From positions 160,001 to 224,000 of the forward strand of contig CAWJRG010000001.1 of assembly GCA_963845185.1 (NCBI GenBank): a stretch of 64,000 nt of DNA, given 5' to 3'. Of the stretch, positions 1 through 21,445 are shown piece after piece. A program made the position numbers and the translations under genes. The DNA comes from an uncultured bacterium. Its GTDB lineage: Bacteria; Oederibacteriota; PGYV01; CAWJRG01. Positions within the stretch are counted from its first letter, which is position 1, and every line of letters starts with the position of its first letter. Under the pieces are notes generated by a model that made no database searches, had not been told where the DNA came from, and saw only the letters and a list, made by a program, of their open reading frames with translations.

Positions 1-3000
1 TGTAGGTGTATTTGTTGGTGTACCTGTCGGTGTCCAAGTCGGTGTATTCGTCGGTGTCCATGTTGGCGTACTTGTCGGCGTCCATGTCGGCGTATTCGTC
101 GGTGTCCATGTCGGCGTATTTGTAGGCGTCCATGTCGGTGTATTTGTAGGCGTCCATGTCGGTGTATTTGTAGGCGTCCATGTCGGCGTATTTGTAGGTG
201 TGCCTGTCGGTGTCCATGTCGGTGTATTTGTCGGTGTCCATGTTGGTGTATTCGTCGGTGTCCATGTTGGTGTATTCGTCGGCGTCCATGTTGGTGTATT
301 CGTCGGCGTCCATGTCGGCGTATTTGTAGGTGTGCCTGTCGGTGTCCATGTCGGTGTATTTGTCGGTGTCCATGTTGGTGTATTCGTCGGTGTCCATGTT
401 GGTGTATCCGTCGGCGTCCATGTTGGTGTATTCGTCGGCGTCCATGTCGGCGTATTTGTTGGTGTGCCTGTCGGTGTCCATGTCGGTGTATTTGTCGGTG
501 TCCAGGTTGGCGTATCCGTCGGCGTATCTGTCGGCGTACCAGTTGGTGTCCATGTCGGCGTATTCGTCGGTGTCCAGGTTGGCGTATCCGTCGGCGTACT
601 TGTTGGCGTCCATGTCGGTGTATTTGTCGGTGTCCATGTCGGTGTATTAGTCGGTGTATTTGTTGGTGTACCTGTCGGTGTCCAGGTCGGCGTATTCGTC
701 GGCGTATTTGTCGGCGTATTTGTCGGCGTCCATGTTGGCGTATTTGTCGGCGTCCATGTTGGCGTATTTGTCGGCGTCCATGTTGGGGTATTCGTCGGTG
801 TCCATGTTGGCGTATTCGTTGGCGTCCACGTTGGTGTATTCGTCTGTGTCCATGTTGGTGTATTTGTCGGTGTACTTGTAGGCGTATTTGTTGGTGTACC
901 TGTCGGTGTCCATGTCGGCGTATTCGTCGGTGTCCATGTCGGCGTATTTGTCGGTGTCCATGTCGGCGTATTTGTCGGTGTGCCTGTAGGTGTATTTGTT
1001 GGCGTACTTGTTGGTGTCCATGTTGGCGTATTCGTTGGCGTCCACGTTGGTGTATTCGTCTGTGTCCATGTTGGTGTATTTGTCGGTGTACTTGTAGGCG
1101 TATTTGTTGGTGTATTTGTCGGCGTATACGTCGGCGTACTTGTAGGCGTATTTGTTGGTGTACCTGTCGGTGTCCATGTTGGGGTATTTGTCGGCGTACT
1201 TGTCGGTGTATTCGTCGTGGTCCATGTCGGCGTATTTGTCGGCGTCCATGTCGGCGTATTTGTCGGTGTCCATGTCAGCGTATTTGTCGGTGTGCCTGTT
1301 GGTGTATTTGTTGGCGTACTTGTTGGCGTCCATGTTGGCGTATTTGTCGGCGTATTTGTTGGCGTCCATGTCGGTGTATTTGTTGGTGTCCATGTCGGCG
1401 TATTTGTCGGTGTGCCCGTCGGTGTCCATGTCGGTGTATTTGTTGGTGTCCATGTCGGCGTATTTGTAGGCGTATTTGTCGGTGTGCCCGTCGGGTCCAT
1501 GTCGGTGTATTCGTCGGTGTATTCGTTGGTGTGCCTGTAGGTGTATTTGTTGGCGTATTTGTCGGTGTCCATGTTGGCGTATTCGTTGGTGTATTTGTCG
1601 GCGTATACGTCGGCGTACTTGTAGGCGTATTTGTTGGTGTACCTGTCGGTGTCCATGTCGGCGTATTCGTCGGTGTCCATGTCGGCGTATTTGTCGGTGT
1701 CCATGTCGGCGTATTTGTCGGTGTGCCTGTAGGTGTATTTGTTGGCGTACTTGTTGGTGTCCATGTTGGCGTATTCGTTGGCGTCCACGTTGGTGTATTC
1801 GTCTGTGTCCATGTTGGTGTATTTGTCGGTGTACTTGTAGGCGTATTTGTTGGTGTATTTGTCGGCGTATACGTCGGCGTACTTGTTGGCGTCCACGTTG
1901 GCGATGTAGTAGCTGTCCATGTTGGCGTACTCGTCGGCGTATTTGTTGGTGTCCATGTCGGCGTATTTGTAGGCGTATTTGTCGGTGTGCCCGTCGGGGT
2001 CCATGTCGGTGTATTCGTCGGTGTATTCGTTGGTGTGCCTGTAGGTGTATTTGTTGGCGTATTTGTCGGTGTCCATGTTGGCGTATTCGTTGGTGTATTT
2101 GTCGGCGTATACGTCGGCGTACTTGTAGGCGTATTTGTTGGTGTACCTGTCGGTGTCCATGTCGGCGTATTCGTCGGTGTCCATGTCGGCGTATTTGTCG
2201 GTGTCCATGTCGGCGTATTTGTCGGTGTCCATGTCAGCGTATTTGTCGGTGTGCCTGTTGGTGTATTTGTTGGCGTACTTGTTGGCGTCCACGTTGGCGA
2301 TGTAGTAGCTGTCCATGTTGGCGTACTCGTCGGCGTATTTGTTGGTGTCCCTGTCGGTGTCCATGTAGGTGTATTTGTCGGCGTGTTTGTCGGTGTACTT
2401 GTCGGCGTCCATGTCGGTGTATTCGTCGGTGTCCATGTCGGCGTATTTGTCGGTGTCCATGTTGGCGTATTCGTTGGTGTGCCTGTTGGAGTCCAAGTTG
2501 GCGTATTTGTAGGCGTCCATGTAGGCGTATTCGTTGGCGTCCACGTTGGTGTATTCGTCGGCGTCCATGTTGGTGTATTCGTCGGCGTCCATGTTGGTGT
2601 ATTTGTTGGTGTGCCTGTCGGGGTCCATGTTGGCGTATTTGTAGGCGTCCATGTCGGCGTATTCGTTGGCGTCCACGTTGGTGTATTCGTCTGTGTCCAT
2701 GTTGGTGTATTCGTCGGTGTACTTGTAGGCGTATTTGTTGGGGTGCCTGTTGGTGTATTCGTCGGTGTACTCGTTGGCGTATTTGTTGGTGTACCGGTTG
2801 GTGTATTCGTCGGTGTACTCGTAGGCGTATTTGTTGGGGTGCCTGTAGGTGTCCATGTTGGCGTGCTCGTCGGCGTATTTGTAGGCGTATTAGTAGGCGT
2901 ATTTGTAGGCGTCCACGTAGGCGAAGTCGTAGGCGTCCATGTTGGCGTATTCGTCGGCGTGCCGGTCGGTGTATTCGTTGGTGTCCATGTCGCCGTATTT

Positions 3001-6000
3001 GTCGGCGTATCTGTATATGTGGATGTTAAAGTCACTGTATCTGTGTATGTAGATGTATAAGTAACTGTCACTGTATATGTCGGCGTTAATGTAAGCGTGT
3101 ATGTGTATGTAAGCGTATATGTCGGCGTAAATGTAGGTGTATTTGTTGGCGTCCATGTCGGTGTAAATGTCGGTGATATGGTGTCGGTCAGTGTTGACGT
3201 TGGCGTCCATGTCGGCGACGCTGTGTATGTCGGCGTATTCGTCGGGCTCCATGTCGGCGTATCTGTGTATGTAGACGTCAGCGTCACTGTCACTGTATAT
3301 GAATATGTATATGTAACCGTAACTGTGTATGTCGATGTCAATGTAAGCGTGTATGTGTATGTAGGCGTATATGTCGGCGTGAATGTTGGCGTATTTGTTG
3401 GCGTCCATGTCGGTGTAAATGTCGGTGATATGGTGTCGGTCAGTGTTGACGTTGGCGTCCAGGTCGGCGACGCTGTGTATGTCGGCGTATTCGTCGGGCT
3501 CCATGTCGGCGTATCTGTGTATGTAGACGTCAGCGTCACTGTCACTGTATATGAATATGTATAAGTAACTGTAACTGTGTATGTCGATGTCAATGTAAGC
3601 GTGTATGTGTATGTAGGCGTATATGTCGGCGTAAATGTTGGCGTATTTGTTGGCGTCCATGTCGGTGTATTTGTTGGCGATATGGTGTCGGTCAGTGTTG
3701 ACGTTGGTGTCCAGGTTGGCGACGCTGTGTATGTCGGCGTATTCGTCGGGCTCCACGTCGGTGTGTCCGTGTATGTAGACGTCAGCGTCACTGTCACTGT
3801 ATATGAATATGTATAAGTAACTGTAACTGTGTATGTCGATGTCAATGTAAGCGTGTATGTGTATGTAGGCGTATATGTCGGCGTGAATGTTGGCGTATTT
3901 GTTGGCGTCCATGTCGGTGTAAATGTCGGTGATATGGTGTCGGTCAGTGTTGACGTTGGTGTCCAGGTCGGCGACGCTGTGTATGTCGGCGTATTCGTCG
4001 GGCTCCACGTCGGTGTGTCCGTGTATGTAGATGTCAATGTCACTGTCACCGTATATGTGTATGTATAAGTAACTGTAACTGTGTATGTTGATGTCAATGT
4101 AAGCGTGTATGTGTATGTAGGCGTATATGTCGGCGTGAACGTTGGTGTATTTGTTGAAGTCCATGTCGGTGTAAATGTCGGTGACATCGAGTTGGTCAGT
4201 GTTGCCGTCGGCGTCCATGTTGGTGACGGTGTATTTGTCGGCGTGTTTGTCGGGCTCCACGTCGGCGTGTCCGTGTATGTAGATGTCAATGTCACTGTCA
4301 CCGTATATGTGTATGTATAAGTAACAGTCACTGTATACGTTGACGTTAATGTAAGTGTGTATGTATATGTCGGTGTATTAGTCGGCGTATTTGTCGGTGT
4401 ATTAGTCGGCGTATTTGTCGGTGTATTTGTCGGCGTTCCAGTGGGCGTATTTGTCGGTGTCCATGTCGGTGTCCATGTCGGTGATGTAGTCGGTGTGTTA
4501 GTCGGCGTATTTGTCGGTGTGCTTGTCGGCGTATTTGTCGGTGTCCTTGTAGGCGTATTTGTCGGTGTACCTGTCGGCGTATTTGTCGGTGTCCACGTAG
4601 GCGTATTTGTCGGTGTGCCTGTCGGCGTATTTGTCAGCGTCCACGTAGGTGTATTTGTTGGTGTGCCTGTCGGCGTATTTGTTGGTGTATTTGTCGGCGT
4701 GCTTGTCGGTGTCCATGTCGGCGTATTCGTCGGCGTCCACGTAGGCGATGTAGTAGATGTCCACGTCGGTGTATTCGTCGGCGTCCATGTAGGTGTATTC
4801 GTCGGGGTCCATGTTGGCGTATTTGTTGGTGTGCCTGTTGGCGTATTTGTAGGCGTCCAAGTCGGCGTATTCGTCGGTGTGCCTGTTGGCGTATTTGTCG
4901 GTGTCCATGTCGGCGTATTTGTCGGCGTGCCTGTCGGTGTATTTGTAGGCGTCCATGTAGGCGTGCTTGTCGGTGTCCATGTCGGCGTATTCGTCGGTGT
5001 CCATGTCGGCGATGTAGTAGATGTCCATGTTGGTGTATTAGTAGGCGTCCATGTTGGTGTATTTGTAGGTGTGCTTGTTGGTGTATTCGTCGGTGTACTT
5101 GTCGGCGTATTCGTCGGTGTCCACGTCGGCGTATTTGTAGGCGTGCCTGTCGGTGTATTCGTCGGTGTCCACGTCGGTGTATTCGTTGGTGTGCCTGTCG
5201 GTGTATTTGTCGGCGTCCACGTCGGTGTATTCGTCGGTGTTCCTGTCGGTGTATTTGTAGGTGTCCATGTCGGCGATGTAGTAGGTGTCCATGTTGGCGT
5301 ATTTGTCGATGTCCATGTTGGCGTATTTGTCGATGTCCATGTTGGCGTATTCGTCGATGTCCATGTTGGCGTATTTGTCGGCGTATTCGTCGGCGTATTT
5401 GTTTTTGTATCCGTCACTGTCACCGTATAAGTTGGGGTTGCCGAAGGCGTTGCCGTATATGTTGGCGTAATGGTAGCTGAAAATATTATTTGCGTAAATG
5501 TCATTGTTATTGTGTACGTCGGGGTGTTGGTCGGGCTCCACGTGGGTGTTGCCGTGTATGTTGACGTCAGTGTTACTGTCACTGTATATGTATATGTGTA
5601 TGTAACCGTCACTGTGTACGTCGGCGTCCATGTTGGCGTATTTGTCGGTGACACAGTGTTGGTTGGTGTTGATGTAGGCGACCACGTCGGTGTATTTGTA
5701 TATGTCTGTGTCCATGTCGGAGTATTTGTCGGCGTGCCGGTCGGTGTATTCGTCGGCGTCCATGTCGGAGTATTTGTTGGCGTGCCGGTAGGTGTATTTG
5801 TCGGCGTCCATGTCGGAGTATTTGTCGGTGTTGCTGTAGGCGTCCATGTTGGCGTAAATGTCGGTGACATCGAGTTGGTCAGTGTTGCCGTCGGTGTCCA
5901 CGTAGGTGATGGTGTATTTGTCGGCGTGTTAGTCGGGCTCCATGTCGGCGTTGCCGTGTATGTTGACGTCAGCGTTACTGTCACTGTATATGTGTAAGTG

Positions 6001-9000
6001 TACGTTACTGTCACTGTATACGTTGATGTCAATGTCAGTGTGTATGTATATGTCGGCGTATTCGTAGGCGTGTATGTCGGCGTATTTGTTGGTGTCCACG
6101 TTGGCGTGAATGTCGGCGATATTGTGTTGGTCAACGTTGCTGTCGGCGTCCATGTTGGTGACGGTGTATTTGTCGGCGTATTCGTCGGGCTCCATGTCGG
6201 TGTCGCTGTATATGTTGACGTCAGCGTCACTGTTACTGTATATGAGTATGTGTACGTTACTGTCACTGTATACGTTGATGTCAATGTCAGTGTGTATGTA
6301 TATGTGGGCGTATTCGTCGGCGTGTTCGTCGGCGTATTTGTCGGCGTCCACGTCGGCGTGAATGTCGGTGACATCGAGTTGGTCAGTGTTGCCGTCGGCG
6401 TCCATGTAGGTGAAGGTGTATTTGTCGGCGTGTTCGTCGGGCTCCATGTCGGCGTTGCCGTGTATGTTGACGTCAGCGTCACTGTTACTGTATATGTGTA
6501 TGTGTACGTTACTGTCACTGTATACGTTGATGTCAATGTCAGTGTGTATGTATATGTGGGCGTATTCGTCGGCGTCCATGTCGGCGTATTTGTTGGTGTC
6601 CATGTCGGCGTGAATGTCGGCGATATTGTGTTGGTCAACGTTGCTGTCGGCGTCCACGTTGGCGTCCAGGTCCATGTTGGCGTGTTTGTCGGGCTCCATG
6701 TTGGCGTAGCCGTGTATGTATAAGTTGAAGTAACTGTTACTGTATATGTGTATGTGTACGTAACCGTCACTGTATATGTTGATGTCAATGTTAGCGTGTA
6801 TGTGTATGTCGGTGTATTTGTTGGTGTGTATGTTGATGTATTTGTTGGTGTCCACGTCGGTGTAAATGTAGGCGATATTGTATTGGTCTTTGTTGCCGTT
6901 GGCGTCCACGTTGGCGTCCAGGTCCATGTCGGCGTGTTTGTCGGGCTCCATGTTGGCGTAGCCGTGTATGTATAAGTTGAAGTAACTGTTACTGTATATG
7001 TGTATGTGTACGTAACCGTCACTGTATATGTTGATGTCAATGTTAGCGTGTATGTGTATGTCGGTGTATTTGTTGGTGTGTATGTTGATGTATTTGTTGG
7101 TGTCCACGTCGGTGTAAATGTAGGCGATATTGTATTGGTCAGCGTTGCTGTCGGCGTCCACGTTGGTGTCCATGTCCATGTTGGCGTGTTTGTCGGGCTC
7201 CATGTTGGCGTAGCCGTGTATGTATAAGTTGAAGTAACTGTTACTGTATATGTGTATGTGTACGTAACCGTCACTGTATATGTTGATGTCAATGTTAGCG
7301 TGTATGTGTATGTCGGCGTATTTGTTGGTGTGTATGTTGATGTATTTGTTGGTGTCCACGTCGGTGTAAATGTAGGCGATATTGTATTGGTCTTTGTTGC
7401 CGTTGGCGTCCACGTTGGCGTCCAGGTCCATGTCGGCGTGTTTGTCGGGCTCCATGTTGGCGTAGCCGTGTATGTATAAGTCGAAGTAACTGTTACTGTA
7501 TATGTGTATGTGTACGTAACCGTCACTGTATATGTTGATGTCAATGTTAGCGTGTATGTGTATGTCGGTGTATTTGTCGGCGTCCATGTCGGCGTATTTG
7601 TTGGTGTCCATGTTGGCGTGAATGTCGGCGATATTGTGTTGGTCAGCGTTGCTGTAGGCGTCCACGTTGGCGTCCAGGTCCATGTCGGCGTGTTTGTCGG
7701 GCTCCACGTAGGTGTTGCCGTGTATGTGGACGTCAATGTTACAGTCACTGTATATGTGGATGTGTAAGTAACAGTTATTGTGTACGTAGGCGTGGGTGTC
7801 AGCGTATATGTGTATGTAGGTGTATTCGTCGGTGTCCATGTCGGTGTCCTGGTCGGTGTCCACGTAGGAGTGAATGTCGGTGATATCGAATTCGTCGGCG
7901 TATTTGTAGGCGTCCACGTTGGCGTCCAGGTCCATGTTGGCGTATTCGTCGGGCTCCATGTCGGCGTTGCCGTATATGTGAACGTCAGCGTTACCGTCAC
8001 TGTATACGTGGATGTGTAAGTTACAGTCACTGTATACGTAGGCGTCGGTGTCAGTGTGTATGTGTATGTCGGCGTATTTGTCGGTGTGTATGTCGGTGTA
8101 TTTGTCGGCGTATTCGTCGGTGTCCACGTCTTTGATATCGTGTTCGTTGGTGTTGCTGTAGGCGTCCACGTCGGCGTAAATGTCCACGTTGGCGTATTCG
8201 TCGGGCTCCATGTCGGCGTTGCCGTATATGTGAACGTCAGCGTTACCGTCACTGTATACGTGGATGTGTAAGTTACCGTCACTGTATACGTAGGCGTCGG
8301 TGTCAGTGTGTATGTGTATGTCGGCGTATTTGTCGGTGTGTATGTCGGTGTATTTGTCGGCGTATTCGTCGGTGTCCACGTCTTTGATATCGTGTTCGTT
8401 GGTGTTGCTGTAGGCGTCCACGTCGGCGTAAATGTCCATGTTGGCGTATTCGTCGGGCTCCATGTCGGCGTTGCCGTATATGTGAACGTCAGCGTTACCG
8501 TCACTGTATACGTGGATGTGTAAGTTACCGTCACTGTGTACGTAGGCGTGGGTGTCAGCGTGTATGTGTATGTAGGTGTATTCGTCGGCGTCCATGTCGG
8601 TGTCCTGGTCGGTGTCCACGTAGGAGTGAATGTCGGTGATATCGAATTCGTCGGCGTATTTGTCGGCGTCCACGTCGGTGTCCATGTCCATGTCGGTGTG
8701 TTTGTCGGGCTCCACGTCGGTGTTGCCGTGTATGTATAAGTCGAGGTATCTGTCATTGTATATGTAAATGTGTAAGTAACCGTCACTGTATATGTCGGCG
8801 TCGGTGTATATGTGCGTGTCCATGTAGGTGTATTAGTCGGTGTCCAGGTCGGTGTTGCTGTCGGCGTCCACGTCGGCGTATTTGTCGGTGTCCATGTAGG
8901 CGTTGCTGTAAGTGTATTTGTTGGCGTCCACGTCGGCGATGTTGAATTTGTTCTTGTTGCTGTAGGCGTCCAAGTAGGTGTATTAGTCGGCGTCCAGGAC

Positions 9001-9400
9001 GGTGTTGCTGTAGGCGTCCATGTCGGCGTATTTGTTGATGTCCATGTCGGTGTAAATGTAGGCGTCCACGTTGGCGTATTTGTAGGCGTCCACGTAGGTG
9101 TTGCCGTAGGCGTATTTGTCGGCGTGAATGTCGGCGACATTGTGTTGGTTTTTGTCGCAGTCAGCGTCCAGGTTGGTGTCGATGTCCATGTCGATGTGCC
9201 GGTCGGGCTCCACGTCGGCGTCCATGTCGGTGTCCATGTAGAAGTATTTGTCGGCGTGCCCGAATACGTCAATGTCGGCGAGTTTGTATAAGTATAAGTC
9301 GGCGTTGCCGTATATGTGAATGTCAGTGTCCGCGTCAATGTCGCCGTCAGTGTTGTCGTGGATGTCGGTGTCCACGTATCGGTTATTACAATAAGTCCAA
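1..9400 (-). repeat. Coding tandem repeats: 12-nt (TPTN/TPTW) units and a higher-order 252-nt (84-aa) unit
   Basis: The 252-nt period is visible directly, e.g. near-identical blocks at 6748/7000/7252/7504, 3577/3829/4081 and 8056/8308. Confidence 0.95.
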
Positions 9401-11564
9401 CGAGATTCGAATTTCCTAGGTTCCAGTCTGCCATGTTCTGCACGCCTGTAGGCGTTGCTGACGGCGGCGGTATTGGAGTCAGTGTCATTGTGTATGTCAG
9501 CGTCGGTATTGGTGTCAGTGTCCGTGAGTATGTAGGCGTAGGAGTCCTCGAAGGCGTCGCAGATATTGTCGGTGTGTTTGTAGGAGAGCCGTTTGACACG
9601 GTAAATGCAATACATGCCTGGTTTCCTATGCTGAGGCTTGGATTCGCGTAAATGTTGCAGTCCCTCACCGCCACTATCGCGTAATATGTGCCGTTTGCCC
9701 AATCCGAGGGCACTGTCATGTAAATCGGGCCGCCGCCAGGTTCCATTCCACAGGAAGCGTCCGTGGTATTGTGCCATTGGCAGTCTTCCGAACACTGGCT
9801 TGTCCTTCCGCCGGCTACCTCGAGGTTCAAGACATCCATGCCTGCTTCGGAAACAAGTACCACCTGCCCATTAGTCGTGGTTCCGTCCGCCTGCACGGCA
9901 CACTGGTTTGAAAGAGCTGCGAAATAGGAGAGTTTGCAGCCGCTGTTTGCGCCTCCGAATTGAAATGTGACTGTCACATTCTGCCCCGGCGCCACTGAGC
10001 CAGGTGATACTGCGAGGTTGCGGATGGATGAAGCCGGAATGCATGTGGGAGTCTGGCTGGGCGGAGGGGTAAGCGTCCATGTCGCCGTAGGTACAAACCA
10101 TGTAGCTGTCTGCGTTTGCCAGTATATTGCGGTCTGTGTCGCGATATAATTTGCTGTTGCTGTCTGTACTACTGCTGTTTGCTGCACTGCTGTTTGTGTT
10201 TGTCCTACGATCGCTGTTTGTGTAGCTTGGTATTGAGCAGTGGCTGTTTGTTGTGCTGCTGCTGTTTGTGTTAAATTTGGTGTCGGCGACAATGTATACG
10301 TCGCCGTAATAGTTGTCGTATACACCGGTGATATTGTGCTGGTCGGCAATATCGTGCCTGTTTTTGTGTTTGTTGGCGACCATGTCGGCGAATAAACCGG
10401 CGTATTTGTCGGCGTCCATGTCGGTGAATAAATAGGCGTGTTTGTCGGGCTGTTCGAGCCACTATACTCATATGCCCCTATGGAATATTTCCCGTTTCCA
10501 TTCGGCCTTGCTTTCCCGTCGTAGTCTACGGACGGCGCTCCTGTGGCGGTCGCGTTGTTTATGCTCTGTGCGCCTGCTTTCAGGTGCAGGTCCGGTGTCC
10601 CGCTTGTCGTTGGGTTTACCACCTCATTTGCCGGTACGACGCCAAATATATTACCAGTCCCCGAAAAACTCGCCTGCTGCGAAAATGCATTGTATGTGAT
10701 CACAGCATCGTCATTTGTCGTTGTCAAACTCAGGTCTGTTGTATTACTGATAAAAAGGCTGTTCGTTATGTAACCTACATTTCCGTTGTTCTGGCTTGCA
10801 TTATCCCAGTATGCTATGTTGTTGTTAAAAAATGTGCAGTTCATTACATCAGTCATCATTTGCCTGTTGGCGCCTGTGTTATATACAGCCGCCGAGTTGG
10901 CTGCCGTGAAACCATATAACAGGTCATTTTCCAGGTATGGCTGATCGCCCGCGTTTCCGTTTTGCTGGGCGTTTTCTACGCCGTATTCTGTTGTCGTCGA
11001 GCTCCCGAGTATTTTGGACTGCTTTATATATAAATTCTTTGCATCCCCGGCATTTGCCAGGTAAACTACGGCATTATTGGTAGTTGAAGTATCTGTCCTC
11101 TCAAGAACGCATGAATCAAAAGTGACGTTCGCGTTGGTATTGCTGAGTTCCACCGTGTAACCGCCGCCCGATGAGTGGTCTATAATTACGTTGGAAATTG
11201 TTATAGGTGTCGTACCGCTCCAGTTGGGATGAAAGTACATGGTAGGATTTGAACCGGTTCCTGTTATTGAATATGTATTTCCGGACTGGGATGTAATATT
11301 TACGTATTTTACGTTTGACCCAAAATCAATATTATCAGTTATGTTCGAAATAAGCTGCAGGGTATCCCCGCTTGCCACTGAACCGCTTGCCAATGCCAGT
11401 GTTATTGTAGCATACTGCCCGCCAGACCCTATTGTCCATGTCGCTGAAAATGCAAAAACAGGCAGTAGAATAAGCCCTATTGCCACGAAGCAGCATTTCA
11501 ATTTTCCCCTAAAAATAGATAGACTGGTCCTGCGACTTTCCGGAACCAGTCTTATCTTTCTCAT
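1..11564 (-). CDS. Giant secreted Thr/Pro-rich surface protein: signal peptide, beta-helix with choice-of-anchor-Q-like end, Cys-rich domain, very long T-x-T-x stalk; one frameshift near 1494; 3' end beyond the window
   Basis: ORF 11564->1275 (3429 aa) has a hydrophobic N-terminus ([16 protein letters not shown]) and the motif [26 protein letters not shown]. The TPTNTPTW repeats continue in another frame from ~1493 to position 1. Confidence 0.85.
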
Positions 11565-11619
11565 AATTACACTTCCCTCCCGTATTTTTTCCCGCCTAAA
11601 AATCAGCGGGGTTCATGCG

Positions 11620-13875
11620 TCACGGGCTTCCCCGTGATATTTCAATCATTGAGGAAATCCTTTTTTCCGGCTCTGTTAGACTCTGGCTATGGGCTGCACG
11701 GTCAAAATATTTTTCACTGTCAACCATGGCAAACAATTCCTTGTCGTCCAGCAGATAAGGTATGCTGGTGACCTGCACAGTAAAGCATACCGAAGTAGAA
11801 GAATTTGCCGGCACGCTTACGCCCGTCCACCATACAACGACATTTGGCCCGTATGTCGTTGTCGAACACCCGCCTGTGCAGCTGACGAAAGTCATAACCG
11901 ATGGTATGGTGTCCCACAAATTGACCGAGGCTGCGGAACTGGCGTTGTTATAAGGCTGCAGGCAGTATTGCACCTGGCCTCCCAGAGGGACTTGCTGTAA
12001 GCTTTCGGTTTTTGTAAGTGTTATCTGCAGGGCCGGCGTGGATGTATATGTCGACGTTGCAGTATAGGTATAAGTTGGTGTTATAGTGTATGTCTTTGTA
12101 GGCGTAAATGTGGGTGTATATGTCGGTGACTGCCCTACAGTGGGTGAAATAGTAAATGTCGGCGTCCATGTCGGCGACTTGCATGTGTCCGCCATGTTTA
12201 CCGTGGATACAGGCGATGCCGCCTGCCCGGGGTAGGACAGCGAAGCGTTATTGTTCCAGTTGCAGGTGCTGTATGCCGAATTGTTGCTTAAATACATTTG
12301 CCATGTAAAGCATCCTGTAAATCCCGCTGCTGTCGGCACAAGTATGAACGTCGCTATGTAAGCGCTTGAGGAACCGGACAGGGATGCCAGACCGGGCCCT
12401 GGATTGCCGGTATAATACGGCCCTTGATATTGCCACCCGTCGCCTGCGTCGCTCGAGTAGTCGTCAATAACCGTGATATCCTGAGTCGCAGCTCCGCTGT
12501 TATTGCATATCGAAAGGGTAAAAGTCAGATTGGTATTTGTGGAACTAATTGTTGTTATGTTGGATGTTTTTACAAGAGTAAATACCGGCGTGGGCGTGAT
12601 TGTGAATGTCTTCGTCGCTGTCGGTGTTGCTGTATATGTCGGGCTGTTTGTCGGAGTGAAAGTTTTTGACGGGCAGAAATTCGTCACAGGCACGCCGCTG
12701 CTTGCATTACCGACCTGCCATGTTAGCGTCACGCTGTTGTACCAGTTCTCGCAGTAAACAATGTTCCATGACTCGGCCAGCCATGTAAAATCGTAGCAGG
12801 GCGTTGTGCAGCCCGTGCATGTAACTCCGGGAAATCCTTCCTCAAAAATAAGATATGGGTTAAGGTTGTTCGCTAAGGCGTTGGATGAAATGTCTCCGTA
12901 ATAAAATCCCCCGACGAAACCTGCACTGTTGGCGCCATAAGGCCCTTGGTACTGGTAGCCGCTGCCGCCACTGCCGACGGGTTGGTCTGTCCACTGGTCA
13001 TTTGTCCAGACTGTTTGAGTAGTGCCGCCGCCTGTGTTGCATATATGAAAAGCAAAACTTACAATTTCATTGTTGCCTCCTAAAAAAGTATTGCTCACAA
13101 GAGTTTTTGATATTGTCATGGCCGGTGGCTTGGGCGTGGGCTCTTCATTTAAGGTAAAACCCTGCCTGTAAAATACCTGCTGGCAGCCGGTCGCTATGCT
13201 TCCAAAACCCAAAGGAGGCAGCGGGCTGTGGAACTCAAAAGAACTGATTTTCTGGCCGTATTCCGTGCCGTTATAGACTATGGTTGAAGCAGACGCCCAT
13301 GTGCCGTTTTCATTGTATAGCGGGTTATACCATGTGAGTCCGCCTTCAGTTGGGCCCAAGTCACATGATACTGCGGTGCCCACTGGTGTTGCTGTCGGGT
13401 TACAGCATACATTGGTGTCCTCTGAATAATCAACCCCGTTGCCGCTGTCGCTGTCCACATAACTGTGCCCCCCGTCTGTACAAGTTATATCCATCGACCA
13501 TGTTGCCCACATTTCGCAGCATTCTGTGTTCTGGTCATGCACTGCAATGACATTTGTAAATGGTGCCAGCGCCAACGAATTAAGCTGTGCAGTGTTAAGT
13601 TGCATGCATTTGGGAGCTACCTGGCCTGTCAAACTTACATCCACGTATCCAAAAGTCGCGAGATATATCCCGTTGATGTAAACGTCGGCTATGTCGTCAA
13701 CAGCTGCGCAAAGCACTGCGGCTTGAGGCGTGCAAACAGTTGCAGCATGTAGGCTGAAATTAAATAAAACAAAAAATAAAAACACACATAAAATTATTTT
13801 TAGTTTCCCGTCAATTCCCCGTTTGGCATTAAACGACAATTTTGAATCCCTGTTCTTGATTTTTTCAGGGCTCAT
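11620..13875 (-). CDS. Secreted Cys-rich protein with DUF11-like Ig modules, Thr-Pro linkers and a C-terminal RGSP tail
   Basis: 751 aa; GGAGG RBS at 13884-13888; signal peptide (IILCVFLFFVLFNFSLHA); DUF11-like pattern ITLTKT..GGQVQY..NLWDTIPSVMTFVS..FTVQV. Confidence 0.8.
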   Translation of the reverse strand: MSPEKIKNRDSKLSFNAKRGIDGKLKIILCVFLFFVLFNFSLHAATVCTPQAAVLCAAVDDIADVYINGIYLATFGYVDVSLTGQVAPKCMQLNTAQLNSLALAPFTNVIAVHDQNTECCEMWATWSMDITCTDGGHSYVDSDSGNGVDYSEDTNVCCNPTATPVGTAVSCDLGPTEGGLTWYNPLYNENGTWASASTIVYNGTEYGQKISSFEFHSPLPPLGFGSIATGCQQVFYRQGFTLNEEPTPKPPAMTISKTLVSNTFLGGNNEIVSFAFHICNTGGGTTQTVWTNDQWTDQPVGSGGSGYQYQGPYGANSAGFVGGFYYGDISSNALANNLNPYLIFEEGFPGVTCTGCTTPCYDFTWLAESWNIVYCENWYNSVTLTWQVGNASSGVPVTNFCPSKTFTPTNSPTYTATPTATKTFTITPTPVFTLVKTSNITTISSTNTNLTFTLSICNNSGAATQDITVIDDYSSDAGDGWQYQGPYYTGNPGPGLASLSGSSSAYIATFILVPTAAGFTGCFTWQMYLSNNSAYSTCNWNNNASLSYPGQAASPVSTVNMADTCKSPTWTPTFTISPTVGQSPTYTPTFTPTKTYTITPTYTYTATSTYTSTPALQITLTKTESLQQVPLGGQVQYCLQPYNNASSAASVNLWDTIPSVMTFVSCTGGCSTTTYGPNVVVWWTGVSVPANSSTSVCFTVQVTSIPYLLDDKELFAMVDSEKYFDRAAHSQSLTEPEKRISSMIEISRGSP

Positions 13876-14092
13876 TGCTCATGCCTCCATAATTATAAAA
13901 TTGATATTTTCCTTTTACCTCTAATTCTCTTCCACAATAAGTATAATTAAATTTTACTATTTTGTCAAGAAAATAGTTAATAATTTTTTCAATTGTTGAA
14001 ATGGATGTTCCATTCTTTATATATTGATTAATTCTACTATATACTAGCATTATTCCGCTTTTTATGTATTTTAGTCTTTGATTTTTTTTCAT
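13865..14092 (-). CDS. Small basic hypothetical protein (75 aa), or a gene remnant
   Basis: Strong AAAGGAGGT RBS at ~14101-14109, downstream of an ECF-type promoter motif; no recognisable domain. Confidence 0.35.
   Translation of the reverse strand: MKKNQRLKYIKSGIMLVYSRINQYIKNGTSISTIEKIINYFLDKIVKFNYTYCGRELEVKGKYQFYNYGGMSNEP
13941..13968 (-). promoter_or_regulatory. Sigma70-type promoter upstream of the surface-protein genes
   Basis: Minus strand TTGACA-N17-TATACT. Confidence 0.6.
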
Positions 14093-14145
14093 TGTTAATA
14101 ACCTCCTTTCATTTTTAACTACTCAAAACATACTTTACATTATAT

Positions 14146-14172
14146 TTGACAATATAAATGCCAAAAAGTTCC
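14146..14172 (-). promoter_or_regulatory. ECF sigma promoter motif GGAACT-N15-TGTCAA
   Basis: Same motif and spacing as upstream of the ECF sigma gene and the VIT gene. Confidence 0.55.
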
Positions 14173-14458
14173 GGTATTTTTACGGTTTTTTTTATAATAT
14201 CAACATATTACTTAACCAATAGCCTTATAATCACATCATACTGTCTGCAAATATATCACTAAATTATCTTTCGCTAAGATATTTTTCGTAATTTTTTAAT
14301 TGTAATTTTATCTTAATGATTATAACAAAATGGTTATTTGAAAACTGTATTTAGCAGGTTATAAAAAAATGGGGTTATTGAATATCAAGGCTGCAATGAA
14401 ACATTGAATAAGCAGCAACGGTAAAATAATCGATATGTATCTTTTCAATTTTTCATCC

Positions 14459-18170: not shown

Positions 18171-19094
18171 TTATTGTTTATGCTTTTGTTTTTCTTCCCA
18201 TTGTTCCCAATCGACAATCAGGGGGCTTGCCAGAAAATCAGAGGAATAAGTTCCAACCACAACTCCAATGACAAGGGCAAGCGAGAAAGTGTGAAGGACG
18301 TTTCCGCCGAACAAAAAAAGCGAAGTGGCAACGCTGAAAGTGGTGAATGAAGTTATGATGGTCCTGGACAGGACTTCGTTTATGCTTATATTTACAAGAT
18401 CGAAAAAAGTCGTTTTCAAAATATGCCTCATGTTTTCCCTTATCCTGTCAAAAACAACAACGGTGTCGGTTAAGGAGTACCCTGCTATGGTGAGCAGTGC
18501 TGTTATCACTAGTAGGTCTATTTCTTTATTAAAAATGACCATAAATCCCAGCACTACAAGCACGTCATGAAGCGTCGCAATGGTGGCAGCCACGGCAAAC
18601 TTAAACTGAAACCTAATCCATATATAAACAAGTATCCCTATCAGCGCCCAGAAAACCGCCAGCAGGGCTTTTTGCTTTAACTGTACGCTTACCATGGGCC
18701 CTATTTCATTCTCTTCCAGAACTGTCATTGCTTCATCGCCTGTTTCTTTCTTAAGCATAGCCGTCAATTTGCCCGACGCGTTCTCTTCCTTTAAATCCCT
18801 TGAGCCTACCCTTATCAGGAATATTTTGTCCGTATCCGCGCCGATCTTTTGTATTACAGACTCCTGAAAATTATTTTTCAGCATTATGTTTCTTATGTCG
18901 TCGACTTTTATAGGTTTAACGAATTTAATCTGTATCGTGGTTCCACCTGTAAAATCCAGCCCCATGGCGGCTTTTCCCGTCGCAATTTTAACAACCGACC
19001 ACAGGCCATTGAGCACAAGTAAAGCCGAAAGTACGTATGTAATTTTTCTCGCACCTATGAAATTAATTTTCGTGTTCTTGATTATCTCTAGCAT
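18171..19094 (-). CDS. secF: Protein translocase subunit SecF
   Basis: GLDFTGGT and GYSLTDTVVVFDRIREN motifs; CAGGAGG RBS before the ATG at 19094. Confidence 0.97.
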   Translation of the reverse strand: MLEIIKNTKINFIGARKITYVLSALLVLNGLWSVVKIATGKAAMGLDFTGGTTIQIKFVKPIKVDDIRNIMLKNNFQESVIQKIGADTDKIFLIRVGSRDLKEENASGKLTAMLKKETGDEAMTVLEENEIGPMVSVQLKQKALLAVFWALIGILVYIWIRFQFKFAVAATIATLHDVLVVLGFMVIFNKEIDLLVITALLTIAGYSLTDTVVVFDRIRENMRHILKTTFFDLVNISINEVLSRTIITSFTTFSVATSLFLFGGNVLHTFSLALVIGVVVGTYSSDFLASPLIVDWEQWEEKQKHKQ

Positions 19095-19162
19095 CTTTTC
19101 CTCCTGATAATAATTTTCTTTTATTTTACTTTTAAACAAATACCATACTCTAATCTATGATT

Positions 19163-20506
19163 TTATATGCTTAATTTGTTGTATTGTTTCCTTATATCGA
19201 ATATTGTCTGGGTTATAAAATATGCCGTGAACAGGCTTATGACAAGGCCCCAGAATAAAGTTACCGCGAACCCTCTTATCGGGCCCGTGCCGAACTGGAA
19301 AAGTATTGCCGCGGTAATAAGTGAGGTTACATGCGAGTCTATAATTGTCCATAAAGCCCTTTTGTATCCGGCGTCTATCGCAGCCCTTATGGTTTTTCCC
19401 GTCCTTAGTTCCTCCCTTATCCTTTCCAGAATAAGTACGTTGGCGTCAACTGCCATACCAAGGGTTAGTGTCAGTCCCGCTATGCCCGGCAATGTCAGTG
19501 TCGCATTTAAGGCAGACATGATTCCCAGGACAAACAGCAGGTTAAAAATAAGCGCAATATCGGCGATAAATCCTGAAAATCTGTAATAAAATACCATAAA
19601 AATCACGACAAGCAGCGCGCCTATCATTATTGACTTTTGGCCTGCTTTTATTGCGTCAGCACCGAGCGACGGCCCTATTATATATTTATTTATAATTTTA
19701 ACAGGCGCCGGAAGCGCACCGGCCCTCAGCACTAGCGCCAGGTCTTTTGACTCATCAAGTGTGAACGAGCCTTCTATTATTCCCGACCCGCCGCCTATCC
19801 TTGTTTTAATTACAGGCGCGGAATAAACTTTATCGTCAAGTATTATTGCGAGGCGCTTTCCCACATTGTCGCCTGTTATTTCTCCGAATTTTCTTCCGCC
19901 TTCAGGCGATAGTTTAAATGCTACCACCGGCCCGCCATATTGCCCCATTTCAACCTTCGCGTCTATCAGTTCAGCCCCGGTTAAAATAGTGTTCTTGTCG
20001 ATCACCATCCTGTCGCCTTCTTCTTTTCCTTCAAGCACTTCGACTTCCGGAGGTATTTTATCAGCCACTGTATTTCCCGCTGCATCAAGCATGTCCGTAA
20101 TTTTATATCGCTCATTGACAAGCTTAAACTGCAATTGCGCTGTTTTCCCTATTATATCAAGCGCGCGTTCTGGATTTTTTATCCCGGGTAACTGTACGAC
20201 AATAAACTGTTCGCCTTCCCTTTGTATTAAAGGTTCGGCAACTCCGAGCGCGTCAATCCTGTTTCTTAATATTTCAAGCGCCCTTGAAACAGCTTCCTCA
20301 AGTTTTATGTTAGGCGGCAGTTTGTCGGAGTCAATGGCTAGCTTTAGATACATGCCGCCCTGCAAATCAAGGCCGAGTTTTATCTTGCCCTTTTCTATTA
20401 TGTTGCCGTCTGTATCCTTTATGTCAAAAGGCGGATAAAGTTTCCAGACAGAAAGCACAAGCATGACAAGTGTTACAAACGCTATTATCTGCTGTTTTCT
20501 ATACAT
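19163..20506 (-). CDS. secD: Protein translocase subunit SecD
   Basis: LGLDLQGG, LRAGALPAP and GMAVDANVLILERIREE motifs. Confidence 0.98.
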   Translation of the reverse strand: MYRKQQIIAFVTLVMLVLSVWKLYPPFDIKDTDGNIIEKGKIKLGLDLQGGMYLKLAIDSDKLPPNIKLEEAVSRALEILRNRIDALGVAEPLIQREGEQFIVVQLPGIKNPERALDIIGKTAQLQFKLVNERYKITDMLDAAGNTVADKIPPEVEVLEGKEEGDRMVIDKNTILTGAELIDAKVEMGQYGGPVVAFKLSPEGGRKFGEITGDNVGKRLAIILDDKVYSAPVIKTRIGGGSGIIEGSFTLDESKDLALVLRAGALPAPVKIINKYIIGPSLGADAIKAGQKSIMIGALLVVIFMVFYYRFSGFIADIALIFNLLFVLGIMSALNATLTLPGIAGLTLTLGMAVDANVLILERIREELRTGKTIRAAIDAGYKRALWTIIDSHVTSLITAAILFQFGTGPIRGFAVTLFWGLVISLFTAYFITQTIFDIRKQYNKLSI

Positions 20507-20764
20507 TAAATTTCCTCCGTATTTGTTTGTTATTAATAGATTTATTTAACGAATGCGTTAATAATAGCATATTACAAGGTTATTTGACAACAGGAATTTT
20601 ATAAGGAAATAGTTGGGGTATCTGTTATTCAAATATATTATTTAGAATGTTTAATAAACTTTTTCTTGTAAATATCGATACTTTTAATGTATACTATTTC
20701 AACTTATTTATTACCTGGCATTTTTGTAAGTGGCCGGATAAATCCTGTAATGGAGGTTTCTGAA

Positions 20765-21445
20765 ATGATTGACTATATGGAAATAATATACTGGTGCATC
20801 TTTGCGGCTTTAATGATAGGCGAATTTTTAGTCGCGAAAGTTTATAAGCTTGATAAAAAACACGTCGTACGCGACTGGGTTGAGCCTGCTTATGAGGCAA
20901 TCATAATAGCAACGATTTTAAGGATTTTTGTCATCCAGTCCTTTGCCATACCCTCAGGTTCAATGGAAGATTCGCTTAAAATCGGCGATCACCCTATGGC
21001 GATAAAATTCGCTTATGGATTATACAACCCTCTTCAGGATAAACTGATTTTTGATTTTATTAAACCCAAAAGGGGCGATGTTATTATTTTTCGGGACCCC
21101 ACGGGAAAAACCAATGAAATGTGGATAAAACGCTGCATGGCAATCCCGGGCGATACAATTGAAATGAAAGACAAAGTTTTTTACTTAAACGGGAAAAAAC
21201 TCGATGAACCGTATATAGTACACAAGGACCCGCACATATATCCTTTTCCTCAGACCACGCGTGATAATTTCCCCCAGATAGTTGTTCCAAAGGGTTATAT
21301 TTTTGCCATGGGTGATAACAGGGATAATTCTTATGATAGTAGGTTCTGGGGGTTCCTGCCTTACAAAAAACTCCGCGGCAAGGCTTTCTGCGTTTACTGG
21401 CCCCCGAATAGGATCAAAATAATCAAGCATTACAAAATAAATTAG
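20765..21445 (+). CDS. lepB: Signal peptidase I
   Basis: IPSGSM (catalytic Ser), IKRC (catalytic Lys), GDNRDNSYDSRFWG; GGAGGT RBS before ATG 20765. Confidence 0.96.
   Translation: MIDYMEIIYWCIFAALMIGEFLVAKVYKLDKKHVVRDWVEPAYEAIIIATILRIFVIQSFAIPSGSMEDSLKIGDHPMAIKFAYGLYNPLQDKLIFDFIKPKRGDVIIFRDPTGKTNEMWIKRCMAIPGDTIEMKDKVFYLNGKKLDEPYIVHKDPHIYPFPQTTRDNFPQIVVPKGYIFAMGDNRDNSYDSRFWGFLPYKKLRGKAFCVYWPPNRIKIIKHYKIN

Follow-up and report, generated by a model that had tools for sequence, protein, structure and literature searches.

The ISRGSP-stop junction between a DUF11-family gene and a giant surface-protein gene looks more like translational coupling than a proven ribosome-arrest sensor

A fixed gene pair and its junction

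The window analyzed here is a 64,000-nt stretch from the 3.5-Mb, 99%-complete genome of an uncultured bacterium, and all coordinates are those of the window unless another contig or locus is named. On its minus strand, a gene for a secreted protein is followed closely by a giant surface-protein gene:

13940..13968, minus strand: best promoter-like site, TTGACA-17-TATACT with 11/12 matches, upstream of the 751-aa gene
11620..13875, minus strand: gene for the secreted 751-aa protein (P0001), which begins with a hydrophobic signal-like segment and has residues 618-704 as its last DUF11 domain
11623..11763, minus strand: codons of the 47-residue tail at the C-terminus
11623..11640, minus strand: codons of I-S-R-G-S-P
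1275..11564, minus strand: ORF (3429 aa) of the giant surface protein with Pro/Thr repeats, its ATG 55 nt past the stop of the 751-aa gene

The product of the first gene ends in ...FTVQVTS followed by IPYLL...EISRGSP and TGA. The minus-strand ORFs thus confirm the layout described in the original prediction, a 751-aa protein with a charged 47-residue tail and an ISRGSP-stop ending just ahead of a giant gene. Over its last ~70 residues the 3429-aa ORF reads the repeat out of frame; the Pro/Thr repeat itself goes on in another frame outside the window, up to position 156761 of contig C1, and the gene comprises more than 4,900 codons. The genes secD and secF are found four genes upstream of the 751-aa gene, and neither lies downstream. 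Two opposite-strand ORFs, 11239-11637(+) and 11689-12000(+), match no Pfam family.

The 751-aa protein belongs narrowly to DUF11 (PF01345) by the Pfam gathering score, residues 618-704 reaching 25.1 bits against a cut-off of 24.6. It resembles the DUF11/TIGR01451 "conserved repeat domain" surface proteins in having DUF11 as its last domain and in having homologues labeled at source as TIGR01451 family, and its subfamily differs from them in having Cys-rich N-terminal domains of its own and a charged tail at the C-terminus, and in always preceding a large secreted partner gene. Among 17 listed junctions in this family, 13 have an ORF of 80 aa or more whose N-terminus is signal-like and whose start lies between −4 and +55 nt relative to the stop codon; at L018 and L023 the downstream DNA is too short for ORF listing, and at L038a and L041 the overlapping start was read by eye. 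Paralogous pairs within the same genome resemble the junctions of relatives. The DUF11 "tail" protein and the large secreted Pro/Thr-repeat protein are a fixed gene pair across the bacterial order.

Conservation of the C-terminal tail

The 47-residue tail has 15 charged residues, counted from the translation, and in the Pfam search of the 751-aa protein no family covered it. AlphaFold predicts a confident beta-sandwich (pLDDT >90) that passes into a weak helix, formed by the first ~20 tail residues, which are conserved family-wide, and then into 18 final residues predicted to be disordered (pLDDT <50). The beginning of the tail, LPY-L...E-F-A-L-D-E, is common to the entire family. This corrects the earlier description of the tail, in which the last ~25 residues alone are idiosyncratic.

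An exhaustive HMMER search gave 1406 matches at E ≤0.001, and the best 150 of these, mostly multi-DUF11 giants, contained one additional RGSP sequence, P0049. Word-based searches limited to the C-terminal region returned the queries themselves, one weak match (P0169), and no further RGSP orthologue. In the three nearest homologues (P0001, which is the 751-aa protein itself, P0003, and P0049) ISRGSP-stop is invariant and the tail after the last domain is exactly 47 residues long; EPE at positions −17 to −15 is also invariant in this clade, and positions −12 to −7 vary. At codon level the comparison comprises the DNA of two genomes, the window and the orthologous locus L029; P0049 is encoded on a 952-nt contig and was compared as protein. 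The ISRGSP codons differ from those of L029 at 5 of 18 bases (TCA>AGC, CGG>CGT, CCG>CCA), and all five changes are synonymous. The last 12 nt (GGAAGCCC-R-TGA) are the same in both save for an A/G position, where a start codon persists. A test set beforehand, conservation at the amino-acid level with synonymous variation and a fixed distance from the last domain, is therefore passed in the closest small clade.

RGSP is confined to 3 of the 29 distinct family tails, all in the clade of the window. Homologues that lack the motif, or that keep nothing but the DNA palindrome, had been named in advance as evidence against an arrest peptide. The other 26 tails do lack RGSP, but within the RGSP clade the motif is kept and the palindrome is not kept in L029.

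RNA structure around the stop and start codons

Three hairpins and a Shine–Dalgarno (SD) block lie between the end of the first gene and the first codons of the second:

11620..11637, minus strand: hairpin 1, 7 bp closing a GAAG loop, stop codon included (−12.4 kcal/mol, z −4.2)
11591..11610, minus strand: hairpin 2, in the intergenic spacer (−11.4 kcal/mol, z −2.8)
11570..11583, minus strand: 14-nt SD block, 5 nt ahead of the ATG of the giant gene and identical in L029
11518..11556, minus strand: hairpin 3, in codons 3-16 of the giant gene (−17.6 kcal/mol, z −4.1)

Folding energies and shuffles substantiate the perfect 7-bp hairpin over the last codons and the second hairpin after it, both of which had been predicted; none of 200 shuffles matched hairpin 1. 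This hairpin is lineage-specific, L029 having only a shifted 5-bp stem (−5.6 vs −12.4 kcal/mol). Hairpin 2 begins 8 nt past the stop codon in both the window and L029, with stems of different sequence. Hairpin 3 is retained with compensatory changes at five loci and is conserved more widely than the RGSP motif, and we regard this structure in the first codons of the giant gene as a better candidate control element than RGSP.

Several other identities for these elements were considered and rejected. Hairpin 1 is not a repeat element, its palindrome being unique in the 3.5-Mb genome and the other three of four loose matches differing in loop and flanks; the SD block and hairpin 3 are likewise each unique in the genome. 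No intrinsic terminator was called at hairpins 1 or 2, the single terminator-like site (11357-11371) lying inside the giant gene. Recoding at the stop was dismissed by eye, as both shifted frames hit stops within seven codons. A search of positions 11200-14200 against Rfam at E ≤1 gave no match to known RNA families, and a scan of genome contigs for the pattern of SD block, ATG, and hairpin 3 gave none either.

The original prediction had also proposed that CCCGU at the end of the 751-aa gene can pair with ACGGG beside the downstream SD. The two segments are complementary in the window, where ACGGG is the 5' end of the SD block, but the pairing is lost in L029 (CCCAU). With the footprint of a stalled ribosome forced to be single-stranded in constraint folding, a thermodynamic model only, the unpaired probability of the SD and AUG was practically unchanged (window, 0.55 to 0.59; L029, 0.43 to 0.43). 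Gating of the giant gene by a stall that unmasks its SD thus found no support, and a SecM-type switch is neither needed nor visible in this model.

Translational coupling and its alternatives

The stop codon itself overlaps a possible start:

11620..11622, minus strand: TGA stop of the 751-aa gene, which with the preceding base of the Pro codon reads GTG (ATG in L029), an overlapping start
11603..11623, minus strand: mini-ORF of six codons plus stop, from the GTG overlapping the TGA to the loop of hairpin 2
11553..11564, minus strand: start of the giant gene, codons of MRKI; these 12 nt recur without change from the stop-overlapping ATG of L029 (L029 8331-8342)

Several junctions in relatives have an SD within the last tail codons together with an overlapping or adjacent start:

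L016 and L030: tail ends GRGGLSP; an ATGA overlap opens the partner gene (shown for L016)
L038, first gene: tail ends GEGGRL; an ATGA overlap opens the partner gene
L041: tail ends GRGEDKHG; an ATG 8 nt before the end of the stop opens the partner gene
L019: tail ends KEE; start 4 nt past the stop
Contig C6 of the same genome: tail ends SRR; SD inside the last tail codons

The window and L029 keep the elements of such a junction, with GTGA and ATGA, respectively, preceded at a distance of 3 nt by the SD-like run GGGGAAG or GTGGAAG. The run is broken in L029 (CGT GGA AG) and would therefore be a poor SD there. In both loci the overlapping start opens only a mini-ORF of six codons, begun by ATG in L029, and not a functional downstream gene. 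The 12-nt identity between the start of the giant gene and the overlapping ATG of L029 has a score that none of 2000 shuffles reached (p <0.0005), and on sequence comparison points to an ancestral overlapping start followed by an insertion or duplication. A simple duplication of the junction as a whole found no support in local alignments inside each genome, where the stop region was not significantly similar to the SD/start region (shuffle p 0.37 and 0.68).

We tentatively favor, at somewhat below even confidence, the reading that the ISRGSP-TGA end is a translational-coupling junction, either relic or relay, between the paired genes. In relatives the two genes touch or overlap, with the SD of the second placed inside the last tail codons of the first, producing Gly-, Arg-, and Glu-rich ends, and with the stop overlapping the start (ATGA). 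In the clade of the window the old junction would persist as a G-rich run (CGG GGA AG), a 3-nt spacer, and GTG or ATG over the TGA, behind which ~45-50 nt may later have been inserted or duplicated, a segment that holds hairpin 2 together with a new ATG and a strong new SD. After completing the 751-aa protein, ribosomes could then restart on the six-codon mini-ORF, run into hairpin 2, and be freed just 5' of the strong SD that serves the giant gene, amounting to relay coupling; the R-G...S-P residues and the 7-bp hairpin would be largely by-products of these coupling signals. The layout is that of known ATGA coupling with an embedded SD, as found in L016/L030, the first gene of L038, and L041, and the window retains the G-run, the spacer, and the GTG overlapping the TGA; it differs in that the main start lies 55 nt on with an SD of its own and in that the overlap opens a mini-ORF. 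What we observe is the anatomy, its conservation, and the overlapping junctions of relatives; that the relay is still active and makes do without a peptide-mediated stall is our inference. Against this reading, a start codon arises by default when TGA follows any of three of the four Pro codons, which makes the overlap weak evidence on its own, and the strength of the main SD means that the giant gene may initiate independently. Furthermore, synonymous changes, among them a switch of Ser codon between TCA and AGC, have left I, S, and R in place, and Pro is not required by the overlap; both points suggest some selection on the peptide.

In a nascent-peptide stall, the original prediction in adjusted form, the ribosome would pause or arrest at RGS|P, in the manner of the Mannheimia SecM, or while terminating at Pro-UGA, in the manner of the NSP-stop/NAP-stop peptides and of TnaC, which arrests at UGA, a stop recognized by RF2. 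The last DUF11 domain would have just left the exit tunnel, and its export or folding would relieve the pause and allow termination and passage to the giant gene, the gate working through conditional coupling rather than SD unmasking. The Mannheimia motif named in the original prediction is confirmed: it is listed as RGSP in PMC10987492 and in full as HAPIRGSP in PMC11370347, so that RGSP is the core of an eight-residue arrest peptide. The invariant ISRGSP, EPE, and tail length next to variable positions −12 to −7, the synonymous codon changes, and the nonconservation of hairpin 1 all fit a stall, as does the requirement for Pro at −1 in NSP-stop/NAP-stop peptides, whose stalled ribosomes have the stop codon in the A site (PMC10987492). 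A C-terminal Pro is rare in the genome (51 of 2092 ORFs of at least 200 aa, 2.4%; four end in SP and one in GSP), and no RF3 domain scored above the Pfam cut-off; clades without RF3 have been linked to stronger depletion of C-terminal Pro (PMC7246954). Five of the 29 family tails end in Pro, but 24 do not, and the enrichment is weak once the RGSP clade is counted once (p 0.027). The upstream half of the SecM motif, HAPI, is replaced by IEIS, and six identical residues at a given place have by our estimate a chance of ~0.01 at 47% overall identity. Together with the absence of the predicted SD unmasking and of a conserved CCCGU/ACGGG pairing, these points make a stall unlikely.

The likeness to known arrest systems is likewise partial. 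The 751-aa gene shares with the SecM of Mannheimia succiniciproducens and the RAPP-like "RQH" substrates ApdA, ApdP, and ApcA an RGSP core near the C-terminus, an N-terminal export signal, and a regulated-looking gene after a short structured spacer. The monitoring substrates described in PMC10987492 are uORFs directly upstream of secA, secDF, or yidC, one search in that paper having targeted "short uORFs"; here a 751-aa structural protein precedes a giant surface-protein gene. Pro is the last codon here, whereas SecM runs on past it. Measured against the Sec/YidC monitoring class (SecM, MifM, VemP, RAPP-like), the locus has an arrest-like motif near the C-terminus in the three closest homologues, absent from the remaining family tails, and has neither a short ORF before secA, secDF, or yidC nor, by constraint folding, an SD-hiding helix melted by the stall. 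The NSP-stop/NAP-stop peptides have x-S-P directly before the stop, as do the window and L029 (S-P-TGA), and differ in requiring Asn at −3, where Gly stands here, and, for uA_NSP-stop, Lys at −5, where Ser stands here (PMC10987492), and in being short and upstream of sec genes; the stall here is putative.

Selection on the peptide might instead reflect a function of the mature protein, the disordered EPE...ISRGSP-COOH serving as a short linear motif recognized extracellularly by a partner, a protease, or a factor for sorting or anchoring, and the family-wide helix docking onto the partner protein. This would suit the conservation at the amino-acid level, the invariant residues within a segment predicted to be disordered, the conserved first part of the tail, and the constant adjacency of the partner gene. 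It too seems unlikely, as the extreme C-terminus is free to vary in the other 26 tails and the tail lies outside every Pfam family. We know of no sorting or recognition motif that resembles EPE...ISRGSP-COOH, which also counts against such a role. A predicted complex of the tail with the conserved domain of the partner scored 0.02 against a mark of 0.32 and gave no answer either way. Quite unlikely is the absence of any present function, in which the six identical residues would be inherited within a small clade and the hairpin would be a chance by-product of CGN-GGN...CCN-UGA codons. The motif occurs in three sequences, two of them close to each other; by our estimate runs of six identities are expected several times per 750-residue alignment at 47% identity; and R-G...P-stop codons are inherently self-complementary, the stem of L029 being weaker and shifted. 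On the other side, the adjoining residues −12 to −7 have diverged completely, Ser is still encoded after a change of codon family, and Pro before a stop is disfavored genome-wide.

Coupling and arrest could also be combined. The Ig-repeat protein would carry an arrest module at its own stop, made of the RGSP core and Pro-UGA 47 residues past the last domain, that holds the ribosome until export or folding and then releases it through the mini-ORF relay to the giant gene, whose start region a conserved hairpin closes. We consider this very unlikely; if true, it would be the first arrest-peptide checkpoint within a structural protein, licensing a costly adhesin instead of a sec gene.

The junction thus looks more like translational coupling than a proven ribosome-arrest sensor. 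An embedded ribosome-binding site and a stop-start overlap can account for the presence of such a motif at a junction, and arrest-like C-terminal motifs should be read with the caution that they can have this origin. If the peptide does not stall ribosomes, the locus documents a surface module of two genes that spans the order and has a peculiar charged tail, junctions at which ribosome-binding signals set the last residues of a protein, and a hairpin that is conserved in the first codons of giant genes. If it does, arrest-peptide sensing would extend from small sec/yidC leader ORFs to a large structural protein, and an uncultured bacterium would tie the synthesis of a costly surface protein to the successful export of its partner.

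Surface-protein gene pair and the tail of P0001

The 751-aa DUF11 protein P0001 and the giant Pro/Thr-repeat surface protein are encoded at the end of an operon-like run in a 3.5-Mb genome (11 contigs, 99% complete), of which the window covers C1:160001-224000, and the source labels on P0001-related proteins read Candidatus Goldbacteria. Genes for secD, secF, and signal peptidase I lie just upstream of this run, four to six genes upstream of the P0001 gene and not downstream of it. The stretch between these and the surface genes encodes a beta-propeller protein and has three ORFs with no Pfam match, and the synteny reaches L029, the locus of the homolog P0003, as ORFs of similar size and order.

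Features in the window
11564 (start), (-): giant gene, ORF of 3429 aa, beginning 55 nt after the TGA of the P0001 gene
11620-13875, (-): P0001 gene, 751 aa by ORF translation
18171-19139, (-): secF
19163-20506, (-): secD
20687-21445, (+): signal peptidase I

The anatomy at the RGSP junction is real and as originally predicted, with a 47-residue tail, an ISRGSP-TGA end, a 7-bp hairpin, a second hairpin, and the giant gene 55 nt on. P0001 begins with a long basic N-region, a hydrophobic segment, and LHA-ATVCTP, which, read by eye, would be a signal peptide; this is followed by Cys-rich N-terminal domains and Pro/Thr linkers, and then by the last DUF11 domain (residues 618–704; Pfam score 25.1 bits, cut-off 24.6). 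The tail is the 47 residues that follow FTVQVTS, with EISRGSP at its end. AlphaFold (15-row alignment) predicts a beta-sandwich within the last 140 residues (pLDDT >90 at residues 7–91), then a low-confidence helix, with pLDDT <50 for the last 18 residues. The description of the tail as unlike the rest of the protein needs amending, as its first ~20 residues (LPY-L...E-F-A-L-D-E) are kept throughout the family. This tail start (11704-11763, -), LP-Y/F-L...K-E-F-F-A-L-L-D-E-R-E-K-Y, is common to the order-level DUF11 family, and its modeled helix could be a docking element for an adjacent partner protein.

Pro/Thr repeats make up nearly the whole giant-gene product. The final ~70 residues of the ORF (1275-1700, -) are an out-of-frame repeat (RRAHRQIR...), and the Pro/Thr frame runs on in another frame past the window start for ~1,600 more codons, to position 156761 of contig C1, ending in a beta-rich C-terminal domain; the change reflects a true frameshift or else an indel of the assembly within the repeats. 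Just outside the window, a P0001 paralog (C1:154687-156393, -; 76% identical over residues 1–551) loses its frame at SLSYPG and runs on, in another frame, as a Pro/Thr ORF of 2937 aa. This version of the gene pair, fused or frameshifted, lacks the tail.

Conservation of the ISRGSP end

A word-based protein search with P0001 returned 19 proteins, the best of which, P0003, ends HISRGSP and shares 47% identity with P0001 across the full length. A HMMER search over all 1.84 billion representatives gave 1406 matches at E up to 0.001, and among the best 150 of these is P0049, a 123-aa fragment (56% identical) ending EISRGSP. All three tails are exactly 47 residues long and share PYL-DD, F, M, D, EK, L, EPE (-17 to -15), and ISRGSP (-6 to -1), with nothing in common from -12 to -7. 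DNA could be compared for two genomes, reading ATA TCA CGG GGA AGC CCG TGA in the window and ATA AGC CGT GGA AGC CCA TGA in L029; all five base differences are synonymous and one switches the serine codon family. By the original prediction's own criterion, then, RGSP and not the palindrome is conserved: across three proteins and two DNAs it is kept as amino acids at a fixed distance with synonymous codons, and these sequences point to conservation at the peptide level within this small clade. Our own estimate of the chance of six identities in a row at a given place, at 47% identity, is ~0.01.

Among the sequences with a last DUF11 domain and a tail start no more than 60 residues from the C-terminus the distinct tails number 29, of which two match very weakly. 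Five end in proline, namely the three RGSP sequences, P0006 (SPATP), and P0113 (QQNP); L016/L030 (GRGGLSP) fell outside this filter. Against 51 of 2092 ORFs of at least 200 aa genome-wide, the enrichment has a binomial p of 6e-4, or 0.027 once the RGSP clade counts once. Judging from these tails, the RGSP motif disappears outside the closest clade.

Hairpins at the junction and the giant-gene start

Hairpin 1, a perfect 7-bp hairpin, is formed by the last 18 nt of the P0001 gene (-12.4 kcal/mol, z -4.2, matched by 0/200 shuffles), and hairpin 2 lies in the spacer (-11.4 kcal/mol, z -2.8). While the peptide motif is conserved, the 7-bp hairpin is not kept in L029, which has only a shifted 5-bp stem with one G-U pair (-5.6 kcal/mol). 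Self-complementarity is built into the codons for R-G...P-stop (CGN GGN ... CCN UGA), and a weak stem comes with it at no cost. We rejected the hairpin 1 palindrome as a dispersed repeat because the genome has a single copy of it. A 16-nt palindrome, CACGGG-CAAG-CCCGTG, is present twice (C4:142 and C9:665763), and its flanks are identical over 20 nt or more on either side; the two copies are probably the termini of a repeat or mobile element and are unrelated to the RGSP junction.

An element conserved more widely than RGSP lies beyond the junction.

Start-region hairpin of the giant gene
11518-11556, (-): hairpin 3, -17.6 kcal/mol, z -4.1; in L029 at 8394-8425, -18.6 kcal/mol

Located inside codons 3–16, hairpin 3 closes the start region in the predicted folds, and its folding energy ranks 35 of 2220 gene starts in the genome. 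Across five loci RNAalifold finds 11 pairs, four with compensatory double changes, and other loci have equally strong hairpins of unrelated sequence in the same place. Hairpin 3 is conserved far more widely than RGSP, and the start-region hairpin is likely a translation-initiation or coupling control element. Rfam gave no match to it, nor to the junction (scan of 11200-14200, E up to 1). A strong hairpin ~9–13 nt after the partner-gene ATG was also seen in L038, L042, L027, L016, L019, L037, and L017. Four otherwise divergent loci (L037, L017, L016, L019) carry TTAAAGCGTTTAA, 13 nt with a 5-bp inverted repeat encoding LKRL, identical base for base ~60–80 nt into the downstream genes.

Origin of the RGSP end

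The original prediction read RGSP-stop as a SecM-type arrest gating the giant gene. RGSP is indeed listed as the Mannheimia SecM motif in a genome-wide arrest-peptide search (PMC10987492), and force-profile studies use the eight-residue HAPIRGSP as a standard arrest peptide (PMC11370347). The known peptides nearest to an S-P-stop end are NSP-stop and NAP-stop (PMC10987492), whose arrest occurs when the stop codon occupies the A site and depends on Pro -1 and Asn -3 (for uA_NSP-stop also on Lys -5); unlike P0001, all of these are encoded by uORFs that precede secA, secDF, or yidC. C-terminal proline is reported to be able to stall termination in Escherichia coli and to be more strongly depleted in clades lacking RF3 (PMC7246954). 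The present genome, 99% complete, may lack RF3, a Pfam query giving only a sub-threshold RF3_C match (37.7 vs 40.1 bits, in a 700-aa ORF); C-terminal proline is depleted in it (2.4% of ORF ends vs 4.2% of all residues). Folding from 120 nt before the stop to 90 nt into the giant gene, free or with 28 nt at the P site forced single-stranded, moved the mean unpaired probability of the Shine-Dalgarno (SD) block from 0.55 to 0.59 in the window and left it at 0.43 in L029; for AUG to +15 it was 0.19 and 0.47, respectively, free and forced alike. A SecM-like unmasking switch was not visible in these modeled folds, and the proposed CCCGU/ACGGG pairing is not conserved because L029 reads CCCAU. A genuine arrest or termination pause seems unlikely to us. 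We consider it equally unlikely that ISRGSP is a C-terminal motif of the mature protein. That the end has no present function is a little less likely still.

The most economical account, which we favor tentatively, is that the end was inherited, as a coupling junction, from two genes that overlapped. At 13 of 17 listed junctions, nearly every one with enough downstream DNA, a large secreted protein gene begins between 4 nt ahead of the stop and 55 nt past it, and paralogous pairs in the same genome look alike. Several junctions have the SD for the second gene embedded in the final codons of the tail, with the stop touching or overlapping the next start, so tail-end residues are often dictated by ribosome-binding signals.

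Ends of first genes at related junctions
L016/L030: GGG AGG GGA GGG CTG TCG CCA TGA (G-R-G-G-L-S-P-stop), ATG overlapping TGA
L038, first gene: GEGGRL, ATGA
L041: GRGEDKHG, ATG within the last codons
L019: KEE
Contig C6 of the same genome: SRR

The window junction has the same build (CGG GGA AG, CCC, GTG overlapping TGA), as does L029 (CGT GGA AG, CCC, ATG). In both, the mini-ORF that begins at the stop-overlapping start has exactly six codons and its stop falls in the loop of hairpin 2, which begins 8 nt past the TGA with differing stem sequences. The 12 nt from the overlapping ATG of L029 (8331-8342) equal the first 12 nt of the giant gene (11553-11564, -; ATG + 9), a score reached by 0/2000 shuffles, and past these 12-mers both run into the same hairpin 3 sequence. 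This is expected if an ATGA overlap was later split, and suggests that the ancestral genes overlapped and that an insertion or duplication later placed ~45–50 nt between them, with hairpin 2, a 14-nt SD block identical in both, and a new ATG. A plain duplication of the entire junction found no support, similarity between stop and start regions within each genome being nonsignificant (p 0.37 and 0.68). The inherited junction may now work as a mini-ORF relay, and the R-G and S-P residues would be largely by-products of its signals.
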